A stretch of DNA of 64,000 bases from Nitriliruptorales bacterium (GCA_024644015.1 JAHELV010000004.1:45703-109702); one strand, 5' to 3'; numbered from the stretch's first letter, positions 21,352 through 29,318 are shown. Notes: generated by a model from the sequence alone, not told the origin. Made by a program: numbers and translations.

Positions 21352-23418
21352 ATGTCGGCTGCGTCGCCCCACGGCACGCTGACCGTCGGCCGACCAACTG
21401 CGAGGACGCCCGACCCCCGGGTGATGGCGTCGCGCGGCTTCGTGTCTCTCGTCTGGCTGGTCCTCGTGGCCGAGTTGTCCTGGGCGGTCGCCGGCGTCGT
21501 GCTGGCCATGCTCGGCGTGTTCTCGCTCCCGCTGGTGTTGGCCGCGTGGACCGCACTCGGGCTCGGTCTGTGGGTCGCCACACGGTCCGCACGCTCCGGT
21601 GACGGGGGGCCGACGGCCCGGTCGACCACATGGATCCGCCTGGCTGCGCTCGCCGTCACGCTGACCGCGATCATCGGCAACGGTCTGCTGCCGGGCGAAC
21701 ACCTGCAGACCGGGCGCGACGGCGGCACGTACACGTCGACGGCCGGCTGGATCGCGTCGGACGGAGGCCTGCTGATCGACGCGGAGGTGCCACCGTTCGA
21801 CAACAGCACCGACCTGGGTTTCGACGCCGCCGGCTTCCACGAGATCGTGCCGCACGGCCCGCTGTACGCCCAGTTCATGCACGCATTGCCCGCGATGATG
21901 GCGACGGTCGACCTCGCCGGTGGGATCGACCTCATGGTGCGGACCAACGCACTGATCGGCGGCGTGGCGCTGCTGGCGTTCTATGCGTTCGCCGAGCGTC
22001 TCATGCGACCGTGGCTCGCGCTCGTCGCACAGGTGGCGCTGGCGACCAACCTGGTGTTCGTCTACTTCACCCGGGCACCGTTCGCCGAGCTGCTGATGCT
22101 CGGCATGCTGTTCGGTGGCCTCTGGGCACTGGACCAGGCGGTGTCCCTTTCGGACCGCACCGTCGGCTTCGTGTCCGGACTGCTGCTGGGCGCCACCTTC
22201 CTGGCACGCCTCGACGGACTGGTCGTGCTGCTGATGCTCACGGCCGCACTGCTGCCGCCCCTGGTCGGCGGGCGGTTGCGCCGTGTGGCACCGGCGGCGC
22301 TCGTGGGCATCGCCGCCATCAGCGCGGTGTCAGTGATCGATCTGTTCGTGTTCTCGCCCTTCTACGTGCAACTCCACGTCGACTTCCTGGTGCCGCTCGG
22401 GCTCGCGCTGATGGTCGTCGGGGCGATCACCGGTGCTTCGCACACGGCGCACGGACGCAACGTGGTCGCGGGAGCGCTGCGGCACCGCGCGACCATCGGC
22501 GCCGGGATCGCGATCGCGATCGTCGTCGCGGGCGTGCTGGCCTACACGGTGCGCCCGTGGTTCGCGGTCGCGACCTGGGACCGCACCACACCGATCGGTT
22601 TCCTCCAGCAGACCGAGGGCCAGGCGGTCGACGAGGCCCGGACCTACGCCGAGCAGAGCGCGCGCTGGCTCGGCTGGTATCTGGGGCTACCCGCGCTCAC
22701 CGCCGGCCTGTTGGGCTGGGCGGCGCTCACGTGGCGCACCATCGCCGACCGGCTCGACCGGACGGTTCCCTTCCTGCTGACGTTCAGCGGACTGGCGACG
22801 CTGTACCTCTGGCGGCCGTCGATCACGCCGGACCACATCTGGGCCGACCGCCGCTTCCTGCCCGTCGTGATCCCTGGCCTGCTCGTGTGCGCCGCGTGGC
22901 TGCTGGACCGCCTGTGGTCGCGCACGTCGATCGGGCGACAGCCGCTGGCGAGCCGGGTCGGACTGGCCGCGGTGGCAGTGCTCATGGTGGCGTTACCGCT
23001 TCGCCTCATGTTGCCGGTCGCCGAACTCCACGAGGAGGCGGGGCTCGCCCGCGAGATCGCTGCGGCCTGCAATCGACTCGGTGACGACGCGGCGGTTCTG
23101 CTGCTCGACGAGGAGGGCACCGCAATGCACTATCGGATGACCCAGCCGCTGCGCTCCCACTGCGGTGTCCCCGCGGCTTGGGCCGACGACACCATCACCA
23201 ACCGGCGCGTCCGCGAACTGGCCGGGCGGGCTGGCGACCGCACGCTGTACCTGCTGGCCGAGCGTCCGGAGTCCTTCGAGGGTCGTCCCGTCGGACAGCC
23301 GTTCACACTGCTCGCGCACCGCAGCACGAGATTGGCTCCAACCTTGACTACTCCACCACAGCGCCTGGAAGGCTATGGTCTGGATGTGCTCGCGGCGCCC
23401 GTCACGAGCGCGGGGTGA
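21352..23418 (+). CDS. Polytopic GT-C-fold membrane glycosyltransferase (PMT_2/AftB-like candidate) with a soluble C-terminal domain
   Basis: 688 aa from the ATG at 21352, with GGGAAGGAG 8 nt upstream. About 12 or more hydrophobic helices followed by a ~150-aa non-membrane tail. Directly upstream of the DPPR-synthase gene. Confidence 0.65.
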   Translation: MSAASPHGTLTVGRPTARTPDPRVMASRGFVSLVWLVLVAELSWAVAGVVLAMLGVFSLPLVLAAWTALGLGLWVATRSARSGDGGPTARSTTWIRLAALAVTLTAIIGNGLLPGEHLQTGRDGGTYTSTAGWIASDGGLLIDAEVPPFDNSTDLGFDAAGFHEIVPHGPLYAQFMHALPAMMATVDLAGGIDLMVRTNALIGGVALLAFYAFAERLMRPWLALVAQVALATNLVFVYFTRAPFAELLMLGMLFGGLWALDQAVSLSDRTVGFVSGLLLGATFLARLDGLVVLLMLTAALLPPLVGGRLRRVAPAALVGIAAISAVSVIDLFVFSPFYVQLHVDFLVPLGLALMVVGAITGASHTAHGRNVVAGALRHRATIGAGIAIAIVVAGVLAYTVRPWFAVATWDRTTPIGFLQQTEGQAVDEARTYAEQSARWLGWYLGLPALTAGLLGWAALTWRTIADRLDRTVPFLLTFSGLATLYLWRPSITPDHIWADRRFLPVVIPGLLVCAAWLLDRLWSRTSIGRQPLASRVGLAAVAVLMVALPLRLMLPVAELHEEAGLAREIAAACNRLGDDAAVLLLDEEGTAMHYRMTQPLRSHCGVPAAWADDTITNRRVRELAGRAGDRTLYLLAERPESFEGRPVGQPFTLLAHRSTRLAPTLTTPPQRLEGYGLDVLAAPVTSAG

Positions 23419-23505
23419 ACTCGGGTCCGCGACAAACGGCAGTGGGTCGATCAGGAATCTGGTCCCCGATCGACACTCGACAGACGAGGTGGGTAGCGAA
23501 GCGAC

Positions 23506-28272: not shown

Positions 28273-29318
28273 ACCAACACGTCGGCGGCCACGAACGCCG
28301 CCAACGGCCACGTACGCCGTGCGGTGAGCACGAGCAGCGGAACCAGCCACAGGTCGAACTGCGGGGAGTAGACCTTGTTGGACAGCAGGAACCACGCGAC
28401 GAGCGGTGTCAGCAGCACCCACTCGCTGCCGTCGTGACGGTGCCAGCCGGCCCGCACTATCAACACGGCTCCGACGGCGAAGAGCGCCGTGCCCCACACG
28501 TTGCGCTGCTCGACACTCGTGGACAGCAGTCCGACCTCCTCCAGGACGGTCCAGGACGCCGCAAACGTGCCCAGCCGCTGCTGCGAGAACGTGTAGAACT
28601 CGATCCACCGTTGCGGTGCCAGCACGGCGACGGGCACGTTGACGACGAGCCAGGCGACGGCGGCGCCGCCGAGCGTGCGGCCGGCTGCCGTCAGGTCCCC
28701 GCGCCGCATGTGCGTGACGAGCAGCAGAGGCAGCAGCAGAGCGGGGAACAGCTTCGCCGCGGCGCCCAGGCCCACGGCGGCTCCAGCGCCGACGTCGCGG
28801 CCGCGCCGGTGGAGGTCGATGCCGAGGACCACGAAGAACATCGCCAGCAGGTCCCAGTTGTGCCCGACGTACAGGACCAGCGCGGGCGCGAGCGCCCACC
28901 ACCACAGTCTGCGCTCGGGCACGCCCATGCGGTGCAGCACCACCAGGAGTCCCAGCGCGAGCGCACCGTTGACCAGCGTGACAACGACGAGAAACGCGAG
29001 CGCGGTGCCGTCGGCGCCGACCAGCGCGCGGCTGGCGGCACCCTCGATCCAGATCTGCGCACCGGTGAGCACCGGGTACTCGAGCGCGGAATCGACGTAC
29101 GGGATGCTGCCGCTCGCAACGTCGCGGGCCGTCCAGAACGGGACGACGTCGGTGTAGCACCCCGTCGTGTACTGCTCGCCGTCGCTCCAGCCACCGTCGA
29201 CGTAGCAGTGCGCCTTGAACGCCCAGCCAGCGAACAGCACGACCACCGCGACGGCCAGCACCGCGCCGGGCACGGGGGTGCGCCGCGCTGACCGCAGGTC
29301 TTGTTCGCCCTCGTTCAT
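28062..29318 (-). CDS. GT87/DUF2029-like polyprenyl-phosphate-sugar-dependent membrane glycosyltransferase
   Basis: 418 aa. N-terminal pattern YTDVVPFWTARDV..GSIPYVDSALEYPVLTG is typical of this family. About 9-10 TM helices. Confidence 0.7.
   Translation of the reverse strand: MNEGEQDLRSARRTPVPGAVLAVAVVVLFAGWAFKAHCYVDGGWSDGEQYTTGCYTDVVPFWTARDVASGSIPYVDSALEYPVLTGAQIWIEGAASRALVGADGTALAFLVVVTLVNGALALGLLVVLHRMGVPERRLWWWALAPALVLYVGHNWDLLAMFFVVLGIDLHRRGRDVGAGAAVGLGAAAKLFPALLLPLLLVTHMRRGDLTAAGRTLGGAAVAWLVVNVPVAVLAPQRWIEFYTFSQQRLGTFAASWTVLEEVGLLSTSVEQRNVWGTALFAVGAVLIVRAGWHRHDGSEWVLLTPLVAWFLLSNKVYSPQFDLWLVPLLVLTARRTWPLAAFVAADVLVYWAEFWYLGWRLGVSPSAPYPVLATAAGVRAAVLVCVIVLAVRDRAPAWLSPSGPPRVRSATATGADSL

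Follow-up and report, generated by a model that had tools for sequence, protein, structure and literature searches.

The addition of pentofuranoses outside the cytoplasm by a polyprenyl-phosphate 5-phosphoribosyltransferase (PPPRS), a flippase and a GT-C glycosyltransferase has been shown experimentally for O antigens (Kelly, Whitfield et al., PNAS 2024; PMC11127046). The prototype of these three-component systems is the O antigen of Citrobacter youngae O1/O2, with its GT136 enzyme; homologues of DprE1 and DprE2 occur in systems containing arabinofuranose (Araf), whilst xylofuranose (Xylf) is accompanied by a different short-chain dehydrogenase/reductase (SDR), and 'more elaborate systems' with several epimerases and GT-C enzymes include examples from Rathayibacter, of the Actinomycetota (PMC11127046). 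Presented here is a related locus from a 64,000-nt stretch of Nitriliruptorales bacterium DNA (GCA_024644015.1, JAHELV010000004.1), hereafter the window, from the start of which all positions are counted. Five same-strand open reading frames (ORFs) between 21352 and 28272, namely gtcA-ubiA-dprE1-dprE2-gtcB, probably form one operon that serves to attach D-arabinofuranose to an envelope acceptor outside the cytoplasm. It belongs to an uncultured lineage of Actinomycetota that falls outside the mycolate bacteria and is possibly related to Euzebyales. As a concept, this type of system is already published; what the window cluster adds are GT-C families other than Emb, Aft and TfpW, and an uncultured host lineage. 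A first-pass annotation of the window had described coupled genes for a lipid-linked arabinose donor, flanked by GT-C proteins and with the envelope acceptor left open, and this interpretation is supported on its main points.

The operon is located in the interval from icd, which ends at 21281 on the minus strand, to a gene for a TetR-family protein. It opens with gtcA (21352-23418, plus strand), which encodes a polytopic GT-C glycosyltransferase of 688 aa from an uncharacterised family; a GGAAGGAG Shine-Dalgarno motif provides a ribosome-binding site upstream of the start at 21352, and this start is further supported by the lengths of gtcA homologues, which are 687-694 aa. Following an 87-nt gap is the ubiA-type gene for PPPRS, also termed decaprenylphosphoryl-5-phosphoribose (DPPR) synthase (23506-24462, plus strand; 318 aa), the stop codon of which overlaps the start of the dprE1-like gene in an ATGA at 24459. 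The latter (24459-25784, plus strand; 441 aa) encodes a predicted FAD-dependent polyprenyl-phospho-ribose 2'-oxidase, and is joined by a second ATGA at 25781 to the dprE2-like gene (25781-26536, plus strand; 251 aa), the product of which is an SDR reductase predicted to convert the 2'-keto intermediate to arabinofuranose. The ATG of gtcB (26542-28272, plus strand), encoding an ArnT/PMT_2-like GT-C glycosyltransferase of 576 aa, is positioned 5 nt past the dprE2 stop, so that all junctions other than that between gtcA and ubiA measure 0-5 nt. Convergent with gtcB, on the minus strand, is a gene for a GT87/DUF2029-like polytopic glycosyltransferase (28062-29318; 418 aa). All six ORFs were borne out at the coordinates first assigned to them, as were both ATGA overlaps and the placement of one GT-C gene directly after dprE2 and of a 688-aa GT-C protein directly upstream of the donor genes, the latter showing a GT-C fold in its AlphaFold model; the convergence of a GT87/DUF2029-type transferase on the cluster was likewise confirmed (PF09594, 43 bits). 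A scan of positions 19000-30500 for promoters and terminators found none, which at 70 % GC is uninformative, and the 87-nt spacer between gtcA and ubiA contains no terminator-like structure, folding no better than shuffled sequence (z = 0.83).

In common with the three-component systems, the window cluster combines a UbiA-type phosphoribosyltransferase with ArnT-like GT-C enzymes and, as in those systems where the sugar is Araf, with DprE1 and DprE2. It differs from them in that its phosphoribosyltransferase is without a fused HAD phosphatase domain, that no MATE or SMR flippase gene is present in either the cluster or the window, and that the donor genes are flanked by two GT-C genes of different families. 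Furthermore, the GT-C proteins do not carry the β-rich C-terminal domain resembling a carbohydrate-binding module, and the genomic context is that of a housekeeping chromosome rather than an O-antigen or exopolysaccharide locus.

The family assignments at the locus go far beyond what chance would give, and the three enzymes of donor synthesis match their mycobacterial counterparts strongly. UbiA matches the NCBIfam model for decaprenyl-phosphate phosphoribosyltransferase (NF008978) at 312 bits (cutoff 207), PF01040 at 81 bits and Rv3806c (PDB 8j8j) at 200 bits, and its 318 residues contain neither a fused phosphatase nor any other extra domain. Phosphoribosyl pyrophosphate (PRPP) and Mg are bound in Rv3806c by Lys28, Asn73, Asp77, Gln135, Lys143 and Lys208 (PMC10994848). 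Five of these six residues are kept in UbiA, where K42, N83, D87, Q146 and K154 correspond to Lys28, Asn73, Asp77, Gln135 and Lys143, respectively, with an alanine being aligned to Lys208. DprE1 aligns end to end with the solved M. smegmatis and M. tuberculosis enzymes (E-value 8.5e-94, ~45 % identity), possesses the FAD_binding_4 domain (PF01565) and retains the C-terminal Lys-containing motif; that it is a homologue of solved DprE1 is beyond doubt, and an equal function is predicted. For DprE2, the NCBIfam model NF053786 is matched at 307 bits (cutoff 250) across positions 1-249 of 252, and adh_short at 122 bits, whilst its translation displays a YxxxK motif (YGSAK) and a glycine-rich NAD motif. 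Taken together, ubiA, dprE1 and dprE2 are credible orthologues of the mycobacterial decaprenyl-phospho-arabinose enzymes, and the contiguous, translationally coupled pathway originally proposed holds on the basis of NCBIfam scores of 312, 466 and 307 bits and the two ATGA overlaps.

A further feature of DprE1 concerns its predicted response to inhibitors. Cys387 of the M. tuberculosis enzyme is the residue covalently attacked by benzothiazinones. The corresponding position in the window protein is occupied by alanine (GWTMAVDIP versus GWNVCVDFP), and natural insensitivity to the benzothiazinone class is therefore predicted.

With regard to the two GT-C proteins of the operon, hidden Markov model searches, which had been proposed at first pass for all three membrane proteins of the locus, placed only some of them in a family. 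Whilst gtcB scores 38.8 bits with Pfam PMT_2 (cutoff 26.1) and the GT87-like protein matches its own family, gtcA reaches just 21.5 bits for PMT_2, under the cutoff; no Arabinose_trans or AftA match from Pfam or NCBIfam was obtained for gtcA or gtcB, and no NCBIfam model at all was matched by gtcA, gtcB or the GT87-like protein. Comparison of gtcA and gtcB with PDB sequences, which include EmbA/B/C, AftA, AftB and AftD, returned nothing at E ≤ 1 by either phmmer or profile. Nor is there profile similarity between either protein and the putative GT-C proteins encoded in the PPPRS clusters of Streptomyces viridifaciens pKVP1 and of a Lactococcus plasmid, and in a tblastn search against plasmids and phages gtcB had no match and gtcA only a 28 % match from Nonomuraea.

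AlphaFold (AF2) models of both proteins were built on homologue alignments and compared with the PDB by Foldseek. The model of gtcA has a predicted local distance difference test (pLDDT) of 91.4 and a predicted TM-score (pTM) of 0.91; that of gtcB has values of 86.8 and 0.84, respectively, with residues 516-576 below 50 and disordered in the model. Both fall within the GT-C superfamily (probability 1.0), their C-terminal domains being small α/β units. The matches for gtcA comprise STT3, ALG12, ArnT and AftA at TM-scores of 0.38-0.50, and the best for gtcB are to ArnT at 0.47-0.50, with lower values for AftA (0.35), Emb (~0.38) and PimE (0.30). Across the two proteins, TM-scores to the known arabinofuranosyltransferases and PimE are 0.35-0.42 for AftA, 0.34 for AftB, 0.30-0.40 for Emb and 0.30 for PimE. 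The structural comparison envisaged in the earlier annotation thus yields GT-C folds for gtcA and gtcB, neither of them close to Emb, AftA, AftB, PimE or ArnT.

Invariant in gtcA are R122-D123, within the motif RDGGTY that follows the third transmembrane helix, as well as E246, R401, W497, R500-R501 and C573/C604; in gtcB, D36 is invariant within an HDD motif that follows transmembrane helix 1, and the motif DIHPPVYFW is conserved. In both proteins an invariant Asp (D123 and D36) thus follows a transmembrane helix, where GT-C enzymes usually have their catalytic base. When aligned to each other by hhalign, only their N-terminal catalytic modules appear related (probability 92 % over 140 columns), with HDD of gtcB aligned to RDGGTY of gtcA and an HPP-type motif present in both. 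The GT136 enzyme of C. youngae (ORF12) has the catalytic residues D31/E34/H106/R349, and analogous features of gtcB are D36 just after the first transmembrane helix, H96 in the DIHPP motif and ArnT as best structural match. Because of the position of the invariant Asp, the GT-C models and the lack of an Emb, Aft or PimE relative, gtcA and gtcB are assigned to ArnT-like GT-C enzymes of uncharacterised families, and are not orthologues of the mycobacterial enzymes.

Related metagenome contigs, together with more distant loci, provide evidence that these GT-C genes belong with the donor genes. The whole operon is kept at 48-81 % amino-acid identity in five relatives (L001, L002, L004, L005 and L096), and gtcA adjoins ubiA in four of these (L001, L002, L005 and L096) as well as in a further locus, L094. 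In L096 the order gtcA-ubiA-dprE1-dprE2-gtcB, together with the convergent GT87-like gene, is found at 48-64 % identity. In L094, the stop of a gtcA homologue of 44 % identity shares 4 nt with the start of a ubiA of PPPRS type, and does so in a different setting, with a methyltransferase upstream in place of icd. For gtcB, the link reaches further. Of 78 distant gtcB-like loci (25-46 % identity), drawn from many phyla, nine encode a UbiA of PPPRS type no more than 10 kb away. Gemmatimonadota account for five of the nine, each with HAD-UbiA, dprE1, dprE2 and another GT-C of the PMT_2 type; of the remaining four, which span four other phyla, two contain HAD-UbiA fusions and two a stand-alone PPPRS. 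By estimate, PPPRS genes being rare in genomes, this represents a strong enrichment next to gtcB-like genes. Only gtcA and gtcB are linked to the donor genes by evidence other than synteny of the region as a whole, and on this genomic evidence both may be counted as components of the system, gtcB more firmly than gtcA.

On the strength of orthology and gene linkage, the following pathway can be proposed. UbiA would transfer the phosphoribosyl group of PRPP to polyprenyl phosphate to give polyprenyl-P-ribose-5-P, as expected from its orthology to Rv3806c, and a phosphatase encoded elsewhere, for which the window holds no candidate, would take off the 5'-phosphate. DprE1 would then oxidise the 2'-OH and DprE2 reduce the keto intermediate, a 2'-epimerisation that would yield polyprenyl-phospho-D-arabinofuranose, again by orthology. 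After a putative transporter has flipped this donor across the membrane, gtcB, and probably gtcA, would use it at the outer face to add the sugar to an acceptor in the envelope, with D36 (gtcB) and D123 (gtcA) as candidate catalytic Asp residues, each immediately following a transmembrane helix in the manner of ArnT-type GT-C enzymes. The presence of two dissimilar GT-C proteins suggests, if loosely, at least two different linkages, such as might arise if a short arabinan were first primed and then extended or branched, as opposed to a single side-chain residue. The polyprenyl carrier itself likely originates from a homologue of undecaprenyl/decaprenyl-diphosphate synthase encoded in the window (uppS; PF01255, 263 bits; 53094 to ~53850, minus strand, start approximate), which is located directly downstream of recO.

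Several points weigh against this interpretation. DprE1 scores 466 bits with NCBIfam NF053785, just under the 500-bit equivalog cutoff. When every sizeable ORF of the window was scanned, no PAP2 or HAD phosphatase domain and no GtrA, SMR or MATE flippase domain was detected. The entire region from icd to dnaG is syntenic in the closest relatives (L001, L002, L004 and L005), operon and flanks alike (icd, TetR, thiamine genes, sigma factor and dnaG; 65-81 % identity), so that gene order there says little about function. Lastly, a PPPRS gene is missing from the vicinity of most distant gtcB homologues, and the distant homologues of gtcA (28-40 % identity) adjoin GT2 genes, not pentose genes, so that pentose specificity does not hold across the gtcA family.

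The first of these points bears on the identity of the sugar. Were the narrow shortfall of DprE1 meaningful, the product might be a pentofuranose other than D-Araf, or the pathway could stop at polyprenyl-phospho-ribose and a ribofuranose (Ribf) or other epimer be transferred. The GT-C enzymes in systems of this kind may accept more than one pentose, and many related clusters are without dprE1 and dprE2, presumably adding Ribf. Such an outcome is nevertheless very improbable for the window: DprE2 lies above its own equivalog cutoff, DprE1 covers the solved enzyme from end to end with its FAD domain and C-terminal Lys-containing motif kept, and in published systems the DprE1/E2 homologues go with Araf glycans, Xylf being paired with a different SDR.

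The absence of a phosphatase and a flippase concerns the model of D-arabinofuranosylation itself. Comparator clusters supply both functions locally, being arranged as PAP2-PPPRS-GtrA on Streptomyces viridifaciens pKVP1 and as PPPRS-HAD-GtrA on the Lactococcus plasmid. In Pseudomonas pilin arabinosylation, the phosphoribosyltransferase, DprE1 and DprE2 form the minimal set for the D-Araf donor, the phosphatase and the GtrA-like protein being dispensable. Because both are dispensable there, their absence from the window weakens the model without refuting it. That the window would hold no emb-like or aftA-like gene and no PAP2 phosphatase had been stated in the first-pass annotation, and the Pfam scans agree, with Emb and AftA domains likewise missing from the ORFs scanned.

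As to the specificity of the transferases, it is possible, if doubtful, that only gtcB uses the arabinose donor, with gtcA acting on another lipid-linked sugar, such as a polyprenyl-phospho-hexose, the GT87-like protein being a polyprenyl-phospho-mannose-dependent mannosyltransferase, and all of them being neighbours through the clustering of envelope genes. The gtcA homologues of 28-40 % identity are paired with GT2 genes, possible polyprenyl-phosphate hexose synthases, rather than with PPPRS, and the 87 nt between gtcA and ubiA stand out from the 0-5 nt at the other junctions. Set against this are the recurrence of the gtcA-ubiA adjacency with a 4-nt overlap at 44 % identity in the different context of L094 and again at 48 % identity in L096, as well as the lack of any GT2 gene next to gtcA in the window, where the nearest is ~13 kb away. 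Two of the distant gtcA relatives, both from cultured actinomycetes, share a recurring arrangement of their own: in L086 (10001-17947; Phycicoccus) and L087 (10001-15289; Nocardiopsis), gtcA homologues of 28 % identity accompany GT2, GT4 and LPG_synthase_TM genes, all annotated as hypothetical, in what looks like a separate uncharacterised lipid-linked glycosylation module.

Further evidence for this alternative comes from the GT87-like protein. It carries the Pfam GT87 domain above the gathering score (PF09594, 43.1 bits; cutoff 25), with D57, E80-Y81-P82, N154, D156 and K189 invariant. Its family is very large (1804 clusters at 50 % identity), and its profile has GPI mannosyltransferase I (PIG-M, GT50; E-value 1.4e-7) as best match in the PDB, PimE not being matched. 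The gene is kept beside gtcB in L001, L004, L005, L095 and L096. In the more distant relative L095 (Logan SRR28462684, 1445-4679), the GT87-like gene (57 % identity) and the TetR gene are intact with the donor genes absent upstream, and gtcB is without its first ~95-140 residues, i.e. the catalytic part with HDD and DIHPP, which suggests that the arabinose operon was lost whilst the GT87-like and TetR genes were retained. The nearest GT87-like relatives outside its own lineage are from Sphingomonas (50-53 % identity), in unrelated contexts without the operon genes; such closeness between phyla is unexpected, and horizontal transfer may be the cause. A tblastn search with the GT87-like protein against a plasmid and phage collection, including a 2.66-Mb Nocardia record, gave no match. 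As the gene survives in a relative that has lost the operon, and none of the operon genes accompany its Sphingomonas relatives, its membership of the system is doubtful, and it is treated as an unproven neighbour. The initial notion of three flanking transferases acting as one system accordingly stands for gtcA and gtcB, which are linked to the donor genes beyond synteny, and is doubtful for the GT87-like gene in view of L095 and Sphingomonas.

The tail-to-tail overlap between gtcB and the GT87-like gene, a detail absent from the first-pass annotation, extends over 211 bp (28062-28272), and is roughly 100-211 bp in the relatives (L001, L004, L005, L095 and L096). Within it, the third codon positions of both frames coincide, with a third-position G+C content of 0.90 in both, and the last ~60 aa of gtcB (516-576), disordered in the model, are antisense to the GT87-like gene. 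The possibility that this overlap is a functional element was considered and rejected in view of the coinciding codon positions and the disordered tail; it is best explained by gtcB reading on into a shadow frame that is free of stops because its neighbour is high in GC.

When the locus is compared with that of the Mycobacteriales (Rv3806c, Rv3807c, Rv3790, Rv3791 and Rv3789, with EmbA/B/C and AftA-D), the same three donor enzymes are present, with genes for GT-C superfamily transferases as neighbours. The window has neither the PAP2 phosphatase nor a homologue of the GtrA-like Rv3789, its donor genes are contiguous and coupled, and its DprE1 has Ala for the benzothiazinone-reactive Cys. The likeness of gtcA and gtcB to Emb, AftA, AftB and AftD is at the level of fold only (TM-score 0.3-0.42), with no sequence similarity. 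A contrast had initially been drawn with M. tuberculosis, in which the genes are split between two loci; the window genes are indeed contiguous, but the two loci of M. tuberculosis are parts of one cell-wall gene region, which leaves the contrast weaker than first described.

These likenesses raise the question of whether the cluster is a remnant or equivalent of a mycobacterial-type arabinogalactan or lipoarabinomannan pathway, with Emb/Aft, galactan genes and PAP2 located elsewhere and gtcA and gtcB being accessory. The ~45 % identity of the donor genes to their mycobacterial counterparts and the position of uppS after recO, as in mycobacteria, accord with this, and the view is of 64 kb of genome. 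No protein of the window, however, shows sequence similarity to Emb, AftA, AftB, AftD or PimE, and the relatives are labelled just 'Actinomycetota' or 'Euzebyales', including a GT87-like homologue at 66 % identity from a 'Euzebyales bacterium'. In a scan of a genome collection, capped at the best 80 loci, close gtcB orthologues (66-69 % identity) were found in only two unclassified Actinomycetota metagenome-assembled genomes, and none of the 80 loci is from Mycobacteriales. A mycobacterial-type pathway is on these grounds improbable. A literature search for cell-wall sugar data on Euzebya found none.

Outside of the mycolate bacteria, a compact set of phosphoribosyltransferase, DprE1 and DprE2 is also found in Pseudomonas aeruginosa/paraeruginosa (PsPA7_6245-6251 and TfpW), where a single GT-C enzyme performs the transfer. 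The Pseudomonas cluster additionally encodes a phosphatase and a GtrA-like protein, and its TfpW has a C-terminal TPR domain and is encoded next to pilA, neither feature being present in the window. Given that Araf on pilin has precedent, the system might attach D-Araf by O-glycosylation to one or several proteins that are secreted or located at the surface, rather than to a polysaccharide or lipoglycan. The match of gtcB to PMT_2, a family including protein O-mannosyltransferase-like enzymes, would suit such a role, as would the fact that both models are as similar to the oligosaccharyltransferases STT3/PglB as to ArnT; these matches, however, are at the level of fold only (TM-score ≤0.5) and do not discriminate between acceptor types. 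Moreover, there is no TPR match from Pfam in gtcA or gtcB even at E ≤ 5, and the neighbourhood of the operon contains neither a pilin gene nor an evident substrate gene. Protein glycosylation is considered unlikely.

Comparable clusters are present in metagenome-assembled genomes of Gemmatimonadota (L026, L029, L030, L037 and L044; e.g. L029, 9974-17023), which share a gtcB-like GT-C (32-35 % identity), dprE2, dprE1 and PPPRS, and at the opposite side encode another GT-C of the PMT_2 type. They differ in that the phosphoribosyltransferase carries a HAD phosphatase domain fused to its N-terminus, the gtcB-like gene converges on the others instead of sharing their direction, and the second GT-C is not a homologue of gtcA; the clusters are uncharacterised. 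They predict D-Araf glycans in this phylum, of which the literature searches, none aimed at Gemmatimonadota, returned no report. A broader proposal, put forward tentatively, is that the gtcA-like (~690 aa, RDGGTY) and gtcB-like (PMT_2-type, HDD/DIHPP) proteins represent two new families of D-arabinofuranosyltransferase that build a D-arabinan envelope polymer in a non-mycolate, Euzebyales-like lineage, so that arabinan building would have an origin independent of Emb/Aft, with the gtcB relatives acting likewise in Gemmatimonadota.

D-Araf is best known from mycobacteria, where it is the target of ethambutol and benzothiazinones. If the proposed function is correct, D-arabinofuranose glycans would extend to an uncultured actinobacterial lineage and, by way of the gtcB-like clusters, to Gemmatimonadota. 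Two uncharacterised GT-C families are thereby named as candidate arabinofuranosyltransferases that can be assayed with existing synthetic lipid-Araf donors, and whilst the concept is unchanged, the catalogue of lipid-linked pentofuranose systems is enlarged by concrete candidate enzymes.

Downstream of the operon, and divergent from the GT87-like gene, is the gene for the TetR-family regulator (29386-29991, plus strand, start approximate; TetR_N and TetR_C_11), which may be a local regulator of its neighbours and which retains its position in L001, L004, L005 and L095. The 64-nt intergenic region between the TetR and GT87-like genes contains a GCGTTACGCTGCG motif that is conserved in L001, L004 and L005, includes a small palindrome (GCGT-T-ACGC) and is positioned at ~29360-29385, ~20 nt upstream of the TetR ATG. 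A search for inverted repeats of ≥8 nt as TetR operator found none, this short conserved motif being the only candidate; it could be an operator or promoter element.

The remainder of the window has the character of an ordinary actinobacterial chromosome, with ~69 % G+C and housekeeping content that includes cytochrome oxidase genes, citrate synthase, a 1650-aa NAD-glutamate dehydrogenase and icd, in addition to a thiamine-salvage ABC cluster, a sigma-70 factor, dnaG, glyS, era, recO and uppS. The gene for cytochrome oxidase subunit II (2334-3596, plus strand) encodes a C-terminal cytochrome c domain, and a cupredoxin gene is located nearby at 6653-7360. The thiamine salvage cluster (30648-34475, minus strand) comprises an ABC ATPase, an NMT1/THI5-like binding protein, a permease, a thiamine-binding protein and thiamin pyrophosphokinase; no thiamine pyrophosphate (TPP) riboswitch was matched there at Rfam gathering thresholds, and the only Rfam matches in the window are three tRNAs (19664-19735, 34448-34520 and 35314-35386). 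Finally, a gene for an APP1-like phosphatidate phosphatase (PF09949, 172 bits; 41775-43085, plus strand) runs antisense to the 5' part of a long stop-to-stop ORF containing glyS (40371-43001, minus strand), of which probably only the 3' ~460 codons are true glyS, the long 5' extension being another shadow ORF in high-GC sequence.

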